From an uncultured Clostridia bacterium (GTDB taxonomy: Bacteria > Bacillota > Clostridia > Christensenellales > DTU072): a stretch of DNA of 64,000 nucleotides. Both the position numbers and the translations under genes were made by a program. Positions 5,973-39,700 of this stretch are shown in pieces. The notes under the pieces are model-generated. The model had not been told where the DNA came from and ran no database searches. It saw only the letters and a list, made by a program, of their open reading frames with translations. The stretch is from assembly GCA_944331875.1 (NCBI GenBank), contig CALVJA010000012.1:638-64637 (forward strand), in the 5' to 3' direction. How positions within the stretch are numbered: position 1 is the first letter of the stretch; each line of letters begins with the position of its first letter.

Positions 5973-6009
5973 GACTGCTTACCAAACTTTCCTAAAAATT
6001 TTGTTAGAC

Positions 6010-6360
6010 AGCATAGTGTCGGTGAAGCTAAAATTTTGCTGTGATACGGTGATGGATCTCGGATACAGACGAAGAAAGGCGGTGCCGCTAATACCCGGAG
6101 GGTCTTGCGGCGCCGTTAGAAGCTTTTGGCTTGTGGCACTTAAATGATTGCGGCAACTCATGCATTTCAGCATTAGATTATTAGGAAGTATAGTGTCGGT
6201 GAAGCGGAAATTTTAGCGTTTTGCGGCAGGAGATTTTTCGTTAATGCGAAGAGAACTTCCGACGTTAATACCCGTAGGGTCTTAACTAGGAAGTTTTCAA
6301 AGCAGTAGCGGAAAAGATACGATGCAAAACGTTAAAATTTCCGCTGAGCCGACACAAAAA
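6010..6360. repeat. Foldback elements, copies 2 and 3 (tandem ~175-bp units)
   Basis: ATAGTGTCGGTGAAGC(T/G)(A/G)AAATTTT occurs at 6014 and 6190. Its inverted partner GTTAAAATTTCCGCTGAGCCGACAC is at 6331, giving a ~30-bp stem. Both units share the core TAATACCCG(G/T)AGGGTCTT. Confidence 0.7.
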
Positions 6361-7840: not shown

Positions 7841-9193
7841 CTATTCTACCAAATCGTTCAGTTCGTCCGTGTATTCGCTGGCGGTCACGACGATAACGGT
7901 GTCTCCCGCTTTTATCTCGGACTCGCCGTCCGGTATGAAAACCTCTCCGCCCCTTATGATCGTGGCGACGAGCGCGTTGTTTTTGAGCCGCACGTTTTTA
8001 AGCGGCGTGTCAAGCGCGCGGAAAGACTGCTCCACCGTAAATTCAAGCGTTTCCGCGCGGTCGTTCATTATCCTGATGAGCTTTTTGACGGCGCCGCCCG
8101 ATTTCGAGCCGCTCCTGCTTCTCGCGAACCGCGCGATAAGGTCTGCGGTTATCGCCTTCGACGACACCACGGAGTCTATGCCCGACTCCTGCAGCATCGA
8201 ATAGTACCCGTTCTTTTCGACTCTCGCAATGACTTTTTTGGCGCCGCGGCTTCTGGCGAACAGCGACATTATGATGTTTTGTTCGTCCAAAGTGCAAAGC
8301 GACACGAATGCGTCCGTCTTCTTTATGCCCTCGTTGATAAGCAAAGTGTGGTCGGACGCGTCGCCGCATATCACCTCCGCCTTGTCCAAAAGCTCGGAAA
8401 GTACCTTGCATCTTTCCTCGTCCGATTCTATTATCTTGACTTTGACGCCCATGCGCTTTAAGTTTTTCGCAAGATAATATGCCACTCTGCCGCCGCCCGC
8501 TATCATAACGCGACGCATCTGTTTGTCGCCGGATATCTCCTTGAAAAAGGTACCTATGTCTCCGGACGCCGCGGCGATATACACGGTGTCGCGAGCGCGG
8601 AGCGTGAAATTGCCGCGCGGTATCGAAACGGTGCCGTCCTCTCTTTCCACGGCGCATACCAAAAACTTTACGGAAAAGCGCGTTTTGATGTCCTTGAGTT
8701 CCAGCCCGTCCATGACCGAGCCGGGGGCGACTTTTACTTCCGCGAGGCTCACCGAGCCGTCAGCGAAGGTCTCTATCTTTATCGCGGACAGATACTTGAG
8801 CGCCGACGCTATCTCCCGCGCAGTCTGGTATTCGGGGTTCACCATCATCGTCAGTCCCAGGTCGCGCTCCTTGAACAGCTCGAAGTACTCGGGGGATCTG
8901 ACGCGGGCTACTGTATCCTTCGCGCCGAGCTTCTTCGCGACCAGCGAACACAATATATTCAGCTCGTCCTGCGGAGTGCACGCCACGAACAGATCCGTCG
9001 TCGCTATGCCCGCTTCCTCCAAAACGTCGAAATCGGCGCCGTTGCCGACTACCCCCATCACGTCGTAAAGGTCAATGAATTCGGAAAGCTGTTTCGCGGA
9101 CGAATCCACCACGACGATGTCGTGTCCCTCTTCGGAAAGCCTTGCGACGAGTTCCTTGCCGACGTTTCCCGCGCCGACTATAACTATTTTCAT
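7841..9193 (-). CDS. trkA: Trk system NAD-binding peripheral subunit
   Basis: 450 aa. Two Rossmann GxGxxG motifs (VGAGNVG, IAGGGRVA), each followed by an RCK_C-like segment. Confidence 0.9.
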   Translation of the reverse strand: MKIVIVGAGNVGKELVARLSEEGHDIVVVDSSAKQLSEFIDLYDVMGVVGNGADFDVLEEAGIATTDLFVACTPQDELNILCSLVAKKLGAKDTVARVRSPEYFELFKERDLGLTMMVNPEYQTAREIASALKYLSAIKIETFADGSVSLAEVKVAPGSVMDGLELKDIKTRFSVKFLVCAVEREDGTVSIPRGNFTLRARDTVYIAAASGDIGTFFKEISGDKQMRRVMIAGGGRVAYYLAKNLKRMGVKVKIIESDEERCKVLSELLDKAEVICGDASDHTLLINEGIKKTDAFVSLCTLDEQNIIMSLFARSRGAKKVIARVEKNGYYSMLQESGIDSVVSSKAITADLIARFARSRSGSKSGGAVKKLIRIMNDRAETLEFTVEQSFRALDTPLKNVRLKNNALVATIIRGGEVFIPDGESEIKAGDTVIVVTASEYTDELNDLVE

Positions 9194-9252
9194 ATTCCGT
9201 ACCTCTCAACGAATGCGGGGCATTGCCCCGGAGTGAAAACCATCATAAAAAA

Positions 9253-9657
9253 TCATTCCCCCGCCCGAGCCTCGGCAAACGCAATAAGAGCGTCGGCGTT
9301 TTTTCCTCTGCGGAGCGAATAGTAATAGTCCCTGCCGCCGAATTTTCCCGCTACCGAACGCATGAACTCCATTCCGCACGACCCCGGAATAAGTTTTACC
9401 GCCAAAAGGTCGAACGGCATTTCGTTATAGATCTCGGTCTTCGCAAAAGAAAAAAGGACCCATACCCCCTCGTCTAGCGCCCTTTGCACCTCGGAGTCGA
9501 GAGAAACACCCAACGCGGGCATCTCGTAGCCGCCCGAAAATACCTCTTTCAGCAGAGTGAAAAACTCCGCTTTCCCATCCGGATCGAGCGTCGTACGCCT
9601 CCCCGAAACCGATACGCTCACTTCACGCGCCCTTTCGAGGCGCTCCGTTAGTCCCAT
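9253..9657 (-). CDS. Hypothetical protein
   Basis: 134-aa ORF co-oriented with and upstream of trkA. No motif recognised. Confidence 0.45.
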   Translation of the reverse strand: MGLTERLERAREVSVSVSGRRTTLDPDGKAEFFTLLKEVFSGGYEMPALGVSLDSEVQRALDEGVWVLFSFAKTEIYNEMPFDLLAVKLIPGSCGMEFMRSVAGKFGGRDYYYSLRRGKNADALIAFAEARAGE

Positions 9658-9900
9658 GATAGTATATTATACAACCCCGACGGCGCGTTGTACAGTATTT
9701 TTCGGATATCCTCGATACGCTCTCGCGCGCATATGCGTTTATTAATGATATATTCCGTAAAACAAAAGTAAATCGGGGTACGCCTCATTCGCCCCGTCGG
9801 GGGGCTTTCGGAAAAGCGGGATATCCGAATTTGCCGCGAAAGATTGATTTTCCCGCGCCGATGGTTTATAATTTCAATTACCGACTTTTCGGAGGGCGTT

Positions 9901-10770
9901 ATGTACGACGTGATTCTTAATCCCGTTTCCGGCAAAGGAAACAGCATGAAGGCATATATGACGGTGAAAGCCGTACTGGACAAAGCGGGCGTGGAATGGG
10001 CGCTGCACAAGACGGAATACCCCCTGCACGCTACCGAAATCGTCAGAAAATTGAACGAAAAGGAGCACGCCGACGTCATCGTCATGGGCGGCGACGGCAC
10101 TTTGAACGAAGTGTTGAACGGCATAACCGATTTTTCGCGTATAAACCTCGGGATAATCTCCTGCGGCACCGGAAACGATTTTATACGCGCGGCAGGACTT
10201 CCGTCCGATCCCGCCGAGGCAGTGAGGCTCATCCTCGCGGGCAACACGGGCTACGTCGATTTTCTGGAACTACCGATGAGGCGCGCCATGAACTGCGCCG
10301 GAGCGGGAATGGACGTCGACGTCCTCGTCAGATACGCTTCGATGAAGGCGTTCAAAGGTAAAATGAAATACTACGCTTCCCTTATCGACACCCTCATCAA
10401 ATGTAAATTCCACAAAATAGCGCTCGAGGTGGACGGCGTCAGATCGGAAAAATCGGTTTTCATGATAGCCGCGGCGAACGGCACCTGTATCGGCGGCGGC
10501 ATGAAGATAAGCCCCAATTCCGTCACCGACGACGGGAAACTGAACGTCGTTTTGATAAACGAAATGCCCAAAAGAAAGATACTTCCCACCCTCATAAAAT
10601 TTTTGAACGGCGGAAAGCATATAACCTCTCCGTATACCGAGGAGTATCTCGCGGAGCGCGTAAGGATAGAGGTTTTGGACGAGGGTCTTACCGAAGTGGA
10701 CGGCGAGGTCATGAACGAAAAGGTCATCGACTGCAAAATAGTCCCCCACACCCTTATGATTTTCAAATGA
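9901..10770 (+). CDS. Diacylglycerol-kinase-family lipid kinase (YegS/DagK-like)
   Basis: MYDVILNPVSGKG N-terminus and GGDGTLNEV catalytic loop. GGAGGG SD before ATG 9901. The track start at 9844 lacks an SD. Confidence 0.85.
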   Translation: MYDVILNPVSGKGNSMKAYMTVKAVLDKAGVEWALHKTEYPLHATEIVRKLNEKEHADVIVMGGDGTLNEVLNGITDFSRINLGIISCGTGNDFIRAAGLPSDPAEAVRLILAGNTGYVDFLELPMRRAMNCAGAGMDVDVLVRYASMKAFKGKMKYYASLIDTLIKCKFHKIALEVDGVRSEKSVFMIAAANGTCIGGGMKISPNSVTDDGKLNVVLINEMPKRKILPTLIKFLNGGKHITSPYTEEYLAERVRIEVLDEGLTEVDGEVMNEKVIDCKIVPHTLMIFK

Positions 10771-10910
10771 TTTTTTTGCCGAAAAGATGATAATTTAATG
10801 CTTTGACAGGAACATAAAAGCAATGTAATGAAAAATGGTGCATTCGACCGAATGCGCTTTTTTTCATAAGGTGAAAATATATTCGGCAAAAAAATCAATA
10901 CCACCGCTTT
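10768..10910 (+). repeat. 143-bp MITE-like module, copy A
   Basis: 141/143 identical to 20857-20999. 13-bp terminal inverted repeats TTTTTTTGCCGAA/TTCGGCAAAAAAA. An internal TTGACA box is followed ~40 nt later by hairpin GCATTCG-AC-CGAATGC plus GCTTTTTTT. Confidence 0.85.
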
Positions 10911-11835
10911 ACCGCGTCTTTCGGGCTCTTTTTTTCGAAATCTTCGACCCCCGCTTTGGAGACCAAACGGGGGCAGCGTCGGCGCGTATGCTATACGCGC
11001 TGTCCTTGTTTCGAAAAAAATAGCGCAGAAACTCACGGCAAATCGGCGCCAAGTATGCTGTTCGAAGCGATAAAATACACAGTGGACTATATTCTCATGT
11101 CGTGGAAAACACTAGTACAGTCGAACTGCTATTCATGGCGATTGCAATATGGTCTTTAGATTGAAGCCCCGCCCTCCCGCCCTATGTGGGGGTATAGGGA
11201 CATGGTAGGTATGGGCTTTATAATGAAGTAGGCTTTTGTGCTAAAGTGTTATACTGCCTTAAATCAAAAATCTTTTCTAGTGTTTAGCGGGGAAGAATGT
11301 GGAAAACTCCGATTTCGCGTATAGTTTTTCCCTTTCCCGTAATACACAAAGTTTATTATTCCTTTAACAGCATATCCCCAAGCCATTTCAACGGGGGAGG
11401 CGCGCGAAGCTTTAGCGGAGCACTTATTCGCCGGGGGTGAAGCGTAAGCGTAACCCCCTCCGATTACATGGCTTGGAAGGTTCAAAGTTTGTTTTCCTTT
11501 TCGTCTGTAATAGTGCCTTTATGAAAGAAATATACACAATGGGAACAGCGCTCCATACTGCTAAACTCTATGATGGGCAAATAAAACACAAAAGCAAATA
11601 CTACGCCTACAGCCGTAGATTTTCGGGTGATTTTTCGTGAACAAAATATCGGCATACGATGTATGCCGACATTTTTTCGCGGAAAAGGACCGAAAAGATA
11701 CGGGAAAGGAATGTTTAAGTTCTTTAATATTTTTTATATCGGAGCGTAGCGACCCTGAACAAAATCCGCGGACAAAAGCAAGAGTGGATATGATGTTTTT
11801 TTTATTTGAGCATTCTATAAAACTCTTAGCGGATT

Positions 11836-12011
11836 TTATTTCACAAATCGACACTTCGGAAAGTTGATTTAACTTCATAAATTTATAGTGTCGATTTATT
11901 TCACAACGCGCCCGTTACGGCTCTACTTCCTACCCTCGGGCGCGTTATTTCACAATTCCGCTTGCGGAATTATTTCACTTTTTTTGCGGCGGTTTCGCCG
12001 CCACAAAAAAA
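11836..12011 (+). repeat. TTATTTCACAA-punctuated hairpin array A
   Basis: TTATTTCAC(AA) at 11836, 11896, 11945 and 11970. Each is followed by a hairpin: ATCGACAC..GTGTCGAT; CGCGCCC..GGGCGCG; TTCCG-CTTG-CGGAA; T7-GCGGCGG-TTTC-GCCGCCAC-A7. Confidence 0.8.
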
Positions 12012-12038
12012 CTCATTCCAACCTTACAACGTGCGTAT

Positions 12039-12962
12039 TCAGTCGTTTTCGAGGAGTTTGTTTTTGAACGCCGCTTTGCGGGCGTTGGCTGAAAGGATCT
12101 CTCTTTCCTCCGCGGTTATGGCTAAAAGTTCGTATTCGCGCCTGAGGGTGGTGGCGGAAACGGCGGTGTTGTCGGTATTCAGTGTGACCGCTACGCCCTG
12201 TGCCATGAGCCGCCTTAGCGGATATTCGCCCCCTTTCCATGCGCCCGTTTGCAGATTCGAGGTGTAACAGAGTTCAAGCGTTACCCCCTCCGATATTATG
12301 CGGCGCAGCGTTTCCGGGTCCTCCACAGCCCTTACGCCGTGCCCCAGGCGCTTTGTACCCATATCAAGCGCCGCGCGGACGGACTCCGCGCCGCCTGCCT
12401 CGCCCGCGTGTATCGTAAACGGTATGCCCTTTTCGCGCGCACGGTCGAATATATATTTATACTCCTCGGTCGGGAAACGCCCCTCGTCGCCCGCAAGATC
12501 TATCGCGACTATTCCGGAGGCGGTTTTTACATATTCCTCTGCAAGCCTGAGCGTTTCGAGGTTCGCATCCCGTTCCCCGCCGCGCATACAACACAAAATT
12601 ATCCCTATCGGAAAACCCCTCTCGAAAGATCTTTTAGCGGCGAAAGAAGCCGCGGAAACTATCTCGCTTTGCGTTGCGCCCGTATCGGTACTGAGCGACG
12701 GCGCAAAGCGTATCTCGGCGTATTCCAGCCCTTCCTTTTCGAGCCTTTCAGCAAGGAGCATTATCGCATGATATACCGATTCGGGTGACTGCAAAAGCGA
12801 TAACGGGAGCCTGAAACGCTCTAGATATGCTTTAAGTCCGCCCTCGGGATCGGGCGGCGAGGACGGATACGTCACCCGCGTTTTCGCATTTTGTTTTGCC
12901 GCCAGCGCGTTTAATTCTCTTTCCCCCAGCGAGCCGTCCAGATGTATATGCAGGTCTATCAT
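12039..12962 (-). CDS. add: Adenosine deaminase
   Basis: 307 aa. Metal-site blocks IDLHIHLDG, FTIHAGE and LNTDN. Overlaps the punA stop. Confidence 0.85.
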   Translation of the reverse strand: MIDLHIHLDGSLGERELNALAAKQNAKTRVTYPSSPPDPEGGLKAYLERFRLPLSLLQSPESVYHAIMLLAERLEKEGLEYAEIRFAPSLSTDTGATQSEIVSAASFAAKRSFERGFPIGIILCCMRGGERDANLETLRLAEEYVKTASGIVAIDLAGDEGRFPTEEYKYIFDRAREKGIPFTIHAGEAGGAESVRAALDMGTKRLGHGVRAVEDPETLRRIISEGVTLELCYTSNLQTGAWKGGEYPLRRLMAQGVAVTLNTDNTAVSATTLRREYELLAITAEEREILSANARKAAFKNKLLEND

Positions 12963-19355: not shown

Positions 19356-19416
19356 TTACTTACTCCTGAATGATTTCAAACGTGTTGTTTCGATATAGAC
19401 CGAAAACAAACGGGCT

Positions 19417-19473
19417 AGAAAATGCCCAAAGGCAGGGTTTAGTTCGACCTAAATGACTGCTTTTGGGCGTTTA
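19417..19473 (+). repeat. Long-stem hairpin element, copy 1 (inside the rpsG-fusA spacer)
   Basis: 16-bp stem AAATGCCCAAAGGCAG/CTGCTTTTGGGCGTTT around the apical module GGTTTAGTTCGACCTAAATGA. Sibling copy at 39769-39826. Confidence 0.8.
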
Positions 19474-19572
19474 GACAAGCGAACGGGAAACTATATCTTC
19501 CCGGGCGCGACGTTTATCTCCGGCGCAAAACGGTACGCGCGTACCGTCCGGCTTACGGTATTTTTCGTCAGA

Positions 19573-20043
19573 TCACCAGCGGAAGTGCGCGAACGCTTTG
19601 TTCGCTTCCGCCATGCGGTGCGTGTCTTCCTTCTTTTTGATGGAGCCGCCCGTGTTGTTGTAAGCGTCCAAGATCTCTCCCGCAAGTCTTTCCGCCATCG
19701 TCCTCTCGCCGCGCTTTCTGGCGTAAAGCACCAGCCAGCGGATACCCAGGGTCTGTCTGCGGACGGGACGGATCTCGAGCGGTACCTGATAGTTCGCTCC
19801 GCCTACGCGGCGCGCTTTGACTTCGAGTACCGGCATGACGTTCTCGAGCGCTTTGAAAAACACTTCGTCGGGCGCGTTGCCCGTCTTTTTGTTGATGATG
19901 TCGAACGCGCTGTAGACTATTTTCTGAGCCGTGCCGAGCTTGCCGTCGTACATGACCTGGTTGGTAAGTTTCGTGATGACCTCGGAATTATATACGGGAT
20001 CCGGAAGTACGTTTCTTTTTGGAACTCCGCTTCTTCTAGGCAT
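19573..20043 (-). CDS. rpsG: 30S ribosomal protein S7
   Basis: 156 aa. [19 protein letters not shown]-terminus. str operon context. Confidence 0.97.
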
Positions 20044-20081
20044 TTTTCAGTCCTCCTGTAGTTGATTGGCGGCGCGCCCCG

Positions 20082-20845: not shown

Positions 20846-20856
20846 GCATTTACCAT

Positions 20857-20999
20857 TGATTTTTTTGCCGAAAAGATGATAATTTAATGCTTTGACAGGA
20901 ACTTAAAAGCAATGCAATGAAAAATGGTGCATTCGACCGAATGCGCTTTTTTTCATAAGGTGAAAATATATTCGGCAAAAAAATCAATACCACCGCTTT
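20857..20999 (+). repeat. 143-bp MITE-like module, copy B
   Basis: 141/143 identical to 10768-10910, with the same TIRs, TTGACA box and hairpin/T-tract. Confidence 0.85.
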
Positions 21000-21632
21000 G
21001 CGCCTCTTTTCCGCCGTATCGCACGAAATTACTTAAAGCCTTTAATATCACCCCGTTTTGGAGACCAAAACGGGGCGCGGACGGCGCATAGTCCCGCTAT
21101 AGCGCCGCCCGCGTTTCTTGCGATACGACGCAAAATAGTCTGCAAATCGGTGCCGAGTATGCTTTCCAATGCGCCAAAATACACAGTGAACTAAACACTC
21201 TCAACGTAGCGAAAAAATACAAAGTGAACTATACACGCTCTACTTGGCAACAAAATACATAGTGGACTGCATTCTTCTTTCATGCAAAACACTAATGCAA
21301 GCAAACTGCTGTTCATGGCTAAAGCAAATCGGTGCCGAGTATGCTTTCCAATGCGCCAAAATACACAGTGAACTATACACGCTCTACTTGGCGACAAAAT
21401 ACACGCCTACAGCCGTAGATTTTCGGGGGATTTTTCGTGAACAAAATGGCGGCATACGATGTATGCCGATATTTTTTCGCGAAAAAGGACCGAAAAGATA
21501 CGGGGACTAAAGTATATAGTTGATATATGACTCTTCAATCTAACGACCGCAACAAAATTCGAAACTTTTTGCTTGAACGGGGGAGTGTATATCTTTTTGC
21601 TTGTGCGAGGATATAAAAGTGCGGTTCGAATT

Positions 21633-21768
21633 TTATTTCACAAATTGAAACTTTGCCCGCGAAGTTTCAATTTATTTCACAACGCGCGCCCATGGGGCGC
21701 GCGTTATTTCACAATTCCGCTTGCGGAATTATATCACCGTTTTTGCGGCGACAACGTCGCCGCAAAAA
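21633..21768 (+). repeat. TTATTTCACAA-punctuated hairpin array B
   Basis: Motif at 21633, 21672 and 21704, plus the TTATATCAC variant at 21729. Hairpins: ATTGAAACTT..AAGTTTCAAT; CGCGCGCCC-ATG-GGGCGCGCG; TTCCG-CTTG-CGGAA; GTTTTTGCGGCGA-CAAC-GTCGCCGCAAAAAC. Confidence 0.8.
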
Positions 21769-21769
21769 C

Positions 21770-22420
21770 TCACCCTCCCTGTTTTATCTTCGTGTCGAGT
21801 ACATGGCGGGCGGCGAGTTCTTTGAATACGTCTTTGGGTTCGATACCCATTTCCACCATCATGACCATGGCGTGGTAATAAAGGTCGGCAAGTTCGTATA
21901 TCGCCGCTTCCTTGTTCCCCGCTTTCCCTTCGATGATGACTTCGGTGGATTCCTCGCCCACTTTTTTCAGTATCTTGTCTATCCCCTTATTAAATAGGTA
22001 TGTGGTGTAGCTGCCTTCTTTCGGGGAAGTCTTTCTCCCCTTTATGAGTTCGTAAAGCCCTTCTATCGAAAAAGGCTTCATGTCCTTACCTACGAACAGC
22101 GTTCTGTAAAAACAGCTTTCGTTTCCCGTGTGGCAGGCGGGGCCGTCCTTTATGACCTCGGCTACGAGCGAGTCGCCGTCGCAGTCGAGGCGCATTTCGA
22201 CTACGTGCTGGAAGTTTCCGCTCGTTTCGCCCTTTGTCCAGAGCGTCTTCCTCGAGCGGGAATAAAGGCAGGTGACTCCCTTTTCGAGGGTCGCTTTCAG
22301 GCTTTCCTCGTTCATGTACGCGAGCATCAGCACCTGTTTCGAGTAGTAGTCCTGCACGACGCAGGGCACCAGCCCTTTTTCGTCGAATTTTACTTTGGAT
22401 AAAATATCTGCCGCTATCAT
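21770..22420 (-). CDS. hisIE: Bifunctional phosphoribosyl-AMP cyclohydrolase / phosphoribosyl-ATP pyrophosphatase
   Basis: 216 aa from ATG 22420, overlapping the hisF stop. LVPCVVQD and CHTGNESCF (HisI) plus a C-terminal HisE helical part. The track extension to 22606 runs inside hisF. Confidence 0.9.
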   Translation of the reverse strand: MIAADILSKVKFDEKGLVPCVVQDYYSKQVLMLAYMNEESLKATLEKGVTCLYSRSRKTLWTKGETSGNFQHVVEMRLDCDGDSLVAEVIKDGPACHTGNESCFYRTLFVGKDMKPFSIEGLYELIKGRKTSPKEGSYTTYLFNKGIDKILKKVGEESTEVIIEGKAGNKEAAIYELADLYYHAMVMMVEMGIEPKDVFKELAARHVLDTKIKQGG

Positions 22421-23175
22421 ATTCTTACCTCCACGCCCCGAGTGCGGAGCCTTTGCTTTATATCGGATATAGACACTTCGCCGAAGTGGAAAATGCTCGC
22501 CGCAAGCGCCGCGTCCACGCGGGGCACCTTGTCGAAAAGCTCCTCGAAGTGCTCTATCTTCCCCGCGCCGCCGGAAGCTACGACGGGCACGTCCACCGCG
22601 CTGCATACGGCGTCAAGCATCTCTATGTCGAAGCCGTCCTTGACGCCGTCGGTGTCGATGCTGTTCAACACTATCTCGCCCGCGCCGAGGCTTTGTCCCT
22701 TTTTCGCCCAGGAGACCGCCTCGAGCTCCGTTTCCTCCCTGCCGCCGCGCGCGAAAACTTTGAATATCCCGTTCACACGCTTTACGTCCATGGAAAGCAC
22801 CACGCACTGGTCGCCGTATTTTTTTGCCGCGGCGGTTATGACGGAGGGGTCGCGTATCGCGCCCGTATTGACGGACACCTTGTCCGCACCGCTTTTCAGC
22901 ACGCGGTCGAAGTCCTCGACGGTGTTTATGCCGCCGCCCACGGTAAGCGGGATGAATATCTCGCGCGCCACTTCGCTTAAAACCGACGTGAACAGTTTTC
23001 TTCCCTCGTTCGAGGCGGTGATGTCGTAAAATACAAGCTCGTCCGCGTTCTCCGCGTTGTATCTGCGGGCAAGCTCCACAGGGCTTTCGACGTCGCGGAT
23101 ACCGACGAAATTTTTGCCTTTGACCACTCTGCCGTCGCGCACGTCAAGACATGGTATTATACGTTTAGCTATCAT
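22417..23175 (-). CDS. hisF: Imidazole glycerol phosphate synthase cyclase subunit
   Basis: 252 aa. RIIPCLDVRDGRVVKG. his operon order. Confidence 0.95.
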   Translation of the reverse strand: MIAKRIIPCLDVRDGRVVKGKNFVGIRDVESPVELARRYNAENADELVFYDITASNEGRKLFTSVLSEVAREIFIPLTVGGGINTVEDFDRVLKSGADKVSVNTGAIRDPSVITAAAKKYGDQCVVLSMDVKRVNGIFKVFARGGREETELEAVSWAKKGQSLGAGEIVLNSIDTDGVKDGFDIEMLDAVCSAVDVPVVASGGAGKIEHFEELFDKVPRVDAALAASIFHFGEVSISDIKQRLRTRGVEVRI

Positions 23176-39394: not shown

Positions 39395-39700
39395 TTTTTA
39401 GCCTTTCGGCTAAAAGTGATATGCACGTTCCGTGCGTGATATTTTCAGCCCGAGGGCTGAAAGTTACCTTAACTTCTCCCAACGGGAGAAATATCACTCT
39501 GCGAAGCAGAATATCACTTGACGAAGTCAAATATCACTTTGCGAAGCAAAATATAACTTGAGTGTTTAAGTGATATTTTTTAGCCTATCGGCTAAAAAGT
39601 GATATGCACGTTCCGTGCGTGATATTTTGCCCTAAAGGGTCAAAGTTATATTTTCAGCCTTGCGGCTGAAAGCTTTTTCAGCAGTCCGGCTGAATAGAAG
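39395..39700. repeat. ATATCAC/GTGATAT-punctuated mini-hairpin array with a 4 x 20-bp iteron-like core
   Basis: GTGATAT at 39416, 39436, 39570, 39599 and 39619. ATATCAC at 39491, 39511 and 39531. Degenerate ATATAAC at 39551 and GTTATAT at 39645. 12 or more hairpins lie between the motifs. See findings. Confidence 0.85.

Follow-up and report, generated by a model that had tools for sequence, protein, structure and literature searches.

What are the two non-coding regions, each about 1 kb long, that share one series of repeat modules in the genome of an uncultured Clostridia bacterium, and why are they so alike? The stretch of DNA analysed, called the window below, is 64,000 nt long and represents positions 638-64637 of contig C12 in a 1.96-Mb metagenome-assembled genome (MAG) of 38 contigs, 95.9% complete and fragmented at repeats. 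According to Pfam assignments, region A lies between a DAGK/YegS-type lipid kinase gene (+ strand, 9844-10770) and an adenosine deaminase gene (- strand, 12039-12962), and region B between the L7Ae-rpsL-rpsG-fusA operon (- strand) and hisIE (- strand, 21770-22606). It is probable, in our view, that both regions belong to a new, lineage-restricted family of gene-end terminator cassettes of the BIME/BOX type (BIME, bacterial interspersed mosaic element), reshuffled by ectopic recombination or template switching.

A preliminary description of the window had placed modules a to f in both regions, in a common order and orientation, and a repeat finder together with reading of the sequence found all of them there. 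The resemblance is far beyond chance. Module a matched at 97% over 152 nt (10759-10910 vs 20848-20999), module e at 95% (11603-11704 vs 21403-21504) and module f at 87% (11940-12009 vs 21699-21768). The CCCCG...CGGGG hairpin of module b at 10949-10988 matched 21051-21090, and the c/d block, hereafter module cd, matched twice (11038-11117 vs 21142-21221 and 21324-21403). The duplication of c/d proposed for region B was borne out, with four copies there, and no reading frame was conserved, in agreement with the statement that credible open reading frames (ORFs) are lacking. The ~430-bp insert described as private to region A (11151-11536) is indeed absent from B, but it is not private: it is a further module, I, with ~20 copies in the genome.

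Module order across the genome

In BLASTN comparisons with the whole genome, region A gave 260 high-scoring segment pairs and region B 417. Coverage was 60-110-fold over modules a-d and ~18-fold over module I of region A. Self-comparison of the genome placed 98 kb (5.0%), in 167 regions, at a depth of at least 5. Profile searches seeded from region A recovered 77 non-overlapping copies of module a, 127 of b, 161 of cd, 20 of I, 35 of e, 28 of g and 47 of f. These seven profiles explained 50 kb of the repeat fraction, and related families, including an alternative hairpin module of ~150 nt that is able to follow a in place of b, added another 28 kb. The other large repeats were repeats inside LRR and Sel1 proteins.

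The module copies formed 135 co-oriented arrays at ~130 loci, running head to tail in a single orientation within each array. Restarts excepted, the order a < b < cd < I < e < g < f was broken in one of the 360 adjacent steps. Restarts led from cd back to b 27 times and from cd back to a 10 times; module a was followed by b in 71 cases, b by cd in 98, cd by another cd in 54, and g by f in 27. The pattern of an array is a, then b and cd repeated, then optional I, e, g and f, with zero to five cd units, and composites of seven or more module kinds reach ~1.7 kb. Several junctions are fixed, namely GATTGCAATGC between cd and I, TCTAAAGAAA between cd and e, and TT between g and f, the last being identical in most copies. 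The linker from I to e measured 45 nt, and two alternative linkers joined e to g. Given these fixed junctions, the modules behave as cassettes with defined borders. Two arrays facing each other, as in a b cd I cd b a, were often present between convergent genes.

Docking on gene ends

The loci were enriched between convergent genes (34 of 209) relative to divergent ones (9 of 212). Based on crude ORF calls, 47 copies of module a docked with their 5' side on a co-directional gene's 3' end (median distance -2), and 28 copies of module f with their 3' side on that of an opposing gene (median distance +4). The left end of a itself forms a TGA (aatTGAtttc), at which 23 of the 33 upstream ORFs of at least 80 codons stop; many of the proteins stopped in this way end in ..N*. 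In region A, module f is 28 nt away from the adenosine deaminase stop (12039, - strand). At its a end, region B departs from the pattern: module a is not at a gene end there and adjoins the str-operon promoter, TTGACT-17-TATAAT (20845-20817, - strand); its f end is beside the hisIE stop.

Comparison with relatives showed what had stood at these gene ends. The kinase gene at locus A ends in IFR*-TAA in relatives, with a simple hairpin terminator after it in a gap of 40-150 bp, and in IFK*-TGA-element here. This ancestral state came from metagenome and species-level scans with the neighbouring GH27 gene, which returned no conspecific contigs. The C-terminus of FtsX is ..ALR(T/A)Q* in relatives and ..ALRN* here, that of a lysA-like gene product ..EFR* and ..EFRN*, and that of a third gene product ..GRV(VK)* and ..GRVN*, respectively. 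The native stop codon and terminator are replaced by module a, not merely interrupted.

Directly after the right terminal inverted repeat (TIR) of module a, there was often an inverted copy of the bases preceding the left TIR. This copy was at least 7 nt long in 19 of 64 copies, compared with 1.9 expected from permuted pairings. Overall, the flanks of a carried an inverted copy of 3-12 nt and no direct target-site duplication of the kind expected for a MITE (a miniature transposable element with inverted repeats), with the palindromic AATT being ambiguous in this respect. In a second species of the same genus (G013), a 12-nt inverted copy included native FtsX codons and the stop, giving GAACGCAATAAT before module a and ATTATTGCGTTC after it. 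At locus A, two other strains (L248 and L250) had ATTTGAA, the reverse complement of the last bases of the kinase gene, TTCAAAT. The window's strain had AATA at this place, as in the B copy, i.e. a B-type allele. It is known from the literature that inverted repeats grow and become perfect through template switching (PMC8794818, PMC13100816, PMC7202029), and the inverted flank copy would be the product expected of intramolecular template switching on an inverted repeat.

Independent module histories and strain variation

Neighbouring modules did not share a history. Across 39 a-b-cd loci, the pairwise identities of a, b and cd were uncorrelated (r = 0.01, 0.00 and 0.08). Module b fell into three clusters of copies at least 95% identical (sizes 15, 13 and 6), with the adjacent a averaging 85% and the adjacent cd 71%. 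Chimeric copies of b were also found, joined in the conserved loop of its second stem, P2.

Contigs of other strains were collected from ~10 other samples by exact-protein look-ups with rpsL and EF-Tu. The same look-up with adenosine deaminase returned the same sample alone, and with hisIE nothing. The fusA genes of these strains were 98.65-99.6% identical to that of this genome. Mosaics were present at the same two loci, with docking and order unchanged and different content, and their sequences at shared loci were 70-90% identical. Three alleles of region A were found. The window's strain and L247 shared the string a b cd I e g f, with 90% identity over 1.29 kb; L248 lacked I and had a b cd e g f; and in L250, a b cd cd cd was followed by a different repeat. 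The kinase gene at this locus was 94-100% identical between strains up to its stop, and identity then fell to ~86% within a. In region B, with gaps of 861-1065 bp, the b allele varied, cd units differed in number, e and g were present in some cases only, and at least eight distinct module strings occurred among ten contigs. Since the elements stay in place and change allele at these two loci, we infer ectopic conversion from paralogous copies, not transposition.

On one contig (L237:1-3188), the region B gap was 1783 bp long and its f side adjoined a Bmp-family lipoprotein gene instead of hisIE; here, mosaic B and a rearrangement breakpoint fall at the same place. B is also where synteny with other species ends. 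In L250, the f end of mosaic A was swapped for another repeat, which changed the C-terminus of adenosine deaminase (339 vs 307 aa; gene at 8892-9911, orthologue of window 12039-12962). Ribosomal protein S7 was called with 178 aa in one strain (L242/L252), against 156 aa (orthologue of window 19356-20061), and the rpsG-fusA spacer was shorter; this hairpin-filled spacer of the str operon is also strain-variable.

Mobilising enzymes and relatives

Neither Y1/RAYT transposases (PF01797) nor reverse transcriptases (PF00078) were matched in the MAG, while six of 14 control genomes matched the former and controls also matched the latter. No pair of a-type TIRs 0.6-4 kb apart was found in the genome, and no insertion sequence (IS) with the ends of a. 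Region A had no match in phage or plasmid collections. Searched as a whole against 300 genomes of the order, it gave marginal short matches and nothing convincing, and a 383-bp a-b-cd query had no match in 40 relatives.

The core word of module a, TTTTTTCATAAGG, occurred 61 times in this genome, 90 times in G013 and 0-3 times in the other 20 species. In G001, the closest relative by identity of the three proteins compared, it matched no more often than a reversed control pattern. G013 had arrays of its own with a period of ~400 bp (e.g. L227:940-3020), including an a-like element and a b-like closing stem; the other modules were not recognisable by sequence. Arrays in G013, with no a-like elements above the control level in G001, suggest horizontal spread or repeated loss.

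Proposed mechanism and alternatives

In the reading that we consider probable, no dedicated transposase would move the cassettes. Ectopic gene conversion and replication template switching among the ~130 copies would spread and reshuffle the arrays, and the shared modules and fixed junctions would provide the homology for recombination. Template switching on the palindrome of module a would copy the last bases of the gene, inverted, to the far side of a. Modules a and f would serve mainly as transcription terminators and transcript-end hairpins, capping two facing genes, and the structured inner modules would probably be carried along. The folding strand preferences, + for a, I, e and g (for a, I and e in nearly all copies) and - for f in 29 of 29 copies, fit a and f as 3'-end structures of two facing genes.

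Several points weigh against this reading. Random recombination does not by itself explain why all ten restarts of a after cd occur at one fixed point of cd, nor does it explain the exact seat of a on stop codons, and the docking statistics depend on the crude ORF calls. A transposase or recombinase acting in trans could be missing from a MAG that is 95.9% complete and broken at repeats. The near-identity within the b clusters could mean that b has a sequence-specific function, or that it is itself a recently active mobile unit. The terminator function of a and f is predicted from sequence only. Compensatory changes can come from template switching itself, so they are no proof that selection has kept the structures.

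The alternative that modules are MITEs, moved in trans by a missing or lost transposase and kept in order by site-specific insertion into the previous module, seems unlikely to us. It would account for the 15-nt TIRs of module a (GATTTCTTTGCCGAA and TTCGGCAAAGAAATC) with an AATT-like flank on both sides, for the single cd point of the a restarts, and for the patchy distribution in this genome and G013 only. Foldback repeats inserted in the apex of e, and one copy lying within module I and flanked by a direct duplication of ~28 nt, both described below, are in line with it, and IS copies could be unassembled because contigs break at repeats. However, neither an IS with matching ends nor a Y1 transposase or reverse transcriptase was found, and the flank duplication is inverted instead of direct. 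The native stop codon and terminator were replaced, which insertion would have interrupted, and at the two loci followed across strains the elements stayed put and changed allele, as in conversion. TIRs were seen in module a only: no TIR-like terminal pairing stood out in the consensus sequences and folds of the other modules, for which no search aimed at TIRs was made.

A gene in many copies, encoding a large structured non-coding RNA with the modules as its domains, is a quite improbable reading of the composite or of a part such as I plus e. The structures themselves argue for it. Both b and e fold into stable structures in which compensatory changes preserve the pairing. Module b folded with a minimum free energy of -53 kcal/mol (z -4.9 vs shuffles), and its first two stems, P1 and P2, were found in several versions that compensate for one another, with double changes inside a single variant family among them. 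For e, the z score was -8.3, the alifold energy -47.9 on the + strand vs -23.1 on the - strand, and conserved G-U positions on the + strand numbered 43, against one A-C. The + strand gives the better fold in nearly all copies of a, I and e, the core of I is >90% conserved, and a promoter-like GGGACA-16-TATAAT lies in I at 11197-11224, upstream of the e terminator. On the other hand, the terminator in a already stands where the array begins, the fold of f is better on the other strand, the core of I does not exceed its shuffles in stability (z -1.8), and the TATAAT is kept in only four of 12 full copies of I. Strains that share 99.5% identity in fusA differ in which modules they have and in how many copies, and template switching alone can yield compensatory changes (PMC8794818). 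Rfam, in a gathering-threshold scan of the window and in scans of A and B at E ≤ 1, returned Gut-1 alone, below threshold for f. The single long multi-hairpin RNA from the + strand that the preliminary description offered as an alternative was thus weakly supported: the early terminator in a, the mixed strand preference, the poor promoter and the strain-variable content all speak against it.

About as doubtful as the RNA gene is a transposase-free copying process dedicated to installing and rewriting gene-end cassettes. From a hairpin-primed template switch at the stop codon, copying of an ordered master array would proceed outward from the gene, supply a new stop codon and terminator and leave the inverted copy of the gene's last bases as its signature. 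The driver or guide of this process, as a functional site or an RNA, would be the homogeneous three-way junction of b or the core of I.

That A and B are an old segmental duplication or an artefact of short-read MAG assembly is scarcely credible: many contigs do end in repeats, a sign of disturbed assembly, but copies at the ~130 loci are 70-90% identical and not collapsed identical ones, the architecture recurs in independent assemblies of ~10 other samples and in another species, and the plain duplication that the preliminary description had foreseen, with modules nowhere else, is ruled out because the modules recur at these loci in fixed order.

Likeness to known repeat systems

The architecture recalls the BOX elements of Streptococcus pneumoniae, boxA-(boxB)n-boxC, which together with RUP and SPRITE are likewise modular intergenic repeats, with a fixed order and a variable middle module (PMC3049150). 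BOX is also present in roughly a hundred copies in a 2-Mb Firmicute genome, strongly folded and confined to one species and its close relatives, and SPRITE elements, like module a, are terminator-like and near gene 3' ends (PMC3049150). Module a resembles SPRITE in having a GC-rich hairpin and a T-run at gene 3' ends. BOX elements measure 67-637 bp, whereas the arrays here contain seven or more module kinds and extend to ~1.7 kb. Unlike in BOX, stop codons are the docking sites of the end modules, which provide the stop, the flank copy is inverted with no direct target duplication, and the content is reshuffled between strains 99.5% identical in fusA. The correspondence with the A-Bn-C order is by analogy only; sequence similarity to BOX was not detected, and no Rfam family was matched.

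Units of the repetitive extragenic palindrome (REP) are roughly 20-40 nt long. The BIMEs of E. coli, which are accompanied by RAYT/TnpA-REP Y1 transposases, likewise combine palindromic units with defined linkers in a regular configuration, occupy hundreds of extragenic sites, mostly after genes, and are thought to affect terminators and transcript ends (PMC3333891). The description of regions A and B as BIME-like mosaics stands for the architecture, with ~130 loci in fixed order (one violation in 360 steps), but not for membership in the REP/BIME family. Here, the units are 100-390 nt long, short inverted-paired units and a conserved REP head sequence are lacking, no Y1/RAYT transposase and no REP match in Rfam were found, and the host is of the Firmicute type. 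Larger blocks and the lack of a known mobilising enzyme distinguish the system from BIME and BOX.

In the Neisseria intergenic mosaic elements (NIMEs), repeat units are likewise separated by a short conserved word, corresponding here to the word TTATTTCACAA between f hairpins, and they are likewise linked to recombination and strain variation. However, NIME units are 70-200 bp long and unrelated in sequence, and no link to a phage integrase was seen here. Module f matched Gut-1 (RF01706) on the strand of the gene that it follows, scoring 25.3 bits in A (E 0.027) and 38.9 bits in B (E 7e-6). Both scores are below the RF01706 gathering score of 50, and f is only the last module of a larger ordered composite.

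Implications

About 5% of a small gut-bacterial genome consists of an ordered system of non-coding repeats, which has replaced the native stops and terminators of dozens of ordinary genes. In three proteins, FtsX, the lysA-like enzyme and the third, unnamed protein, the last residue or two is altered relative to the orthologues. Between strains, nothing else in the genome changes as fast as the arrays, which makes the arrays useful strain markers, and they are the reason why assemblies of this lineage break. Gene callers will annotate spurious ORFs in the arrays, and C-termini may be mis-set at an element-supplied TGA. The system is also a natural case for asking how mosaics of the BIME/BOX type form without a RAYT or IS partner.

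Module anatomy in regions A and B

Module a occupies 10768-10910 (+) in region A, where the TGA at 10768-10770 is both the stop of the kinase gene and the left end of the element. Its left TIR, GATTTTTTTGCCGAA, is at 10769-10783 and its right TIR, TTCGGCAAAAAAATC, at 10882-10896. The predicted intrinsic terminator (10837-10866) consists of a hairpin at 10837-10858 followed by TTTTTTT. In region B, the module spans 20857-20999 (+), with TIRs at 20858-20872 and 20971-20985 and a hairpin at 20926-20947, again followed by TTTTTTT. A candidate promoter in module a, TTGACA-17-TAATGA, was set aside, as its -10 box is without the final T and the terminator comes directly after it.

Module b (10911-11037, +, in region A) forms a three-way junction. 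Its P1 pairs TTTTTTTCGAAA (10929-10940) with TTTCGAAAAAAA (11009-11020), P2 is CCCCCGCTTTGG-AGA-CCAAACGGGGG at 10948-10973, and P3 is at 10980-11002. Region B carries a variant, b2 (21000-21141, +), in which P1 pairs GTATCGCACGAAA (21016-21028) with TTTCTTGCGATAC (21114-21126) and P2 is at 21051-21075.

Module cd (11038-11139, +, in region A) carries the motifs GCAAATCGG, AAAATACACAGTG and CTGCTGTTCATGGC and is often in tandem. It is weakly structured, with 38-nt sub-repeats and a unit of 113 nt, and in region A it is followed by an 11-nt fixed linker (11140-11150). Several whole and partial cd units fill 21142-21403 (+) in region B (repeat family D1, module string B_L245). The most conserved word of cd, GACAAAATACACAGTG, was present in all copies (11073-11090 in region A, 21178-21260 in region B), with a spacing of ~38 nt in region B, and has an A-rich stretch beside the heptamer CACAGTG. 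It could be a protein-binding word, or its likeness to recombination signal heptamers could be due to chance.

Module I (11151-11536, +) is 387 nt long and non-coding; its highly conserved core is at ~11378-11475, and 12 of its copies are full length. Coding potential was rejected, as all 12 full copies had stops in all six frames and the 113 nt of cd are not a multiple of 3. An insert of ~230 bp in module I (C1:10734-10989 and C17) was flanked by a direct duplication of the first ~28 nt of I (GGTCTTTAGATTGAAGTCCC.CCC). A long direct duplication of this kind was absent at the other junctions examined.

Module e (11580-11705, +, in region A) is a long hairpin with 36 pairs in the consensus fold and a terminator-like apex at 11649-11669, followed by a T-run. 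The corresponding hairpin in region B is at 21403-21512 (+). In two copies (contigs C7 and C15), a foldback repeat of ~240 bp (TAGGAAGTC..GTCGGTGAAGCGGAAATTTT) splits the apex of the e hairpin, which looks like a nested insertion into the hairpin loop. The same foldback family, TAGGAAGTC..GTCGGTGAAGCGGAAATTTT, is also present in tandem at 6001-6214 of the window.

Module g (11730-11835, +) is a linker repeat preceding f. Module f in region A (11836-12011, -) alternates the word TTATTTCACAA with hairpins and ends in a predicted bidirectional terminator, and in region B the Gut-1-like f (21633-21768, -) reaches to 2 nt from the stop codon of hisIE. The window also contains a bona fide Gut-1 RNA (RF01706, 66.4 bits) at 39486-39559 (-), with a 34-nt direct repeat, AAAAGTGATATGCACGTTCCGTGCGTGATATTTT, in perfect copies on either side (39412-39445 and 39595-39628).

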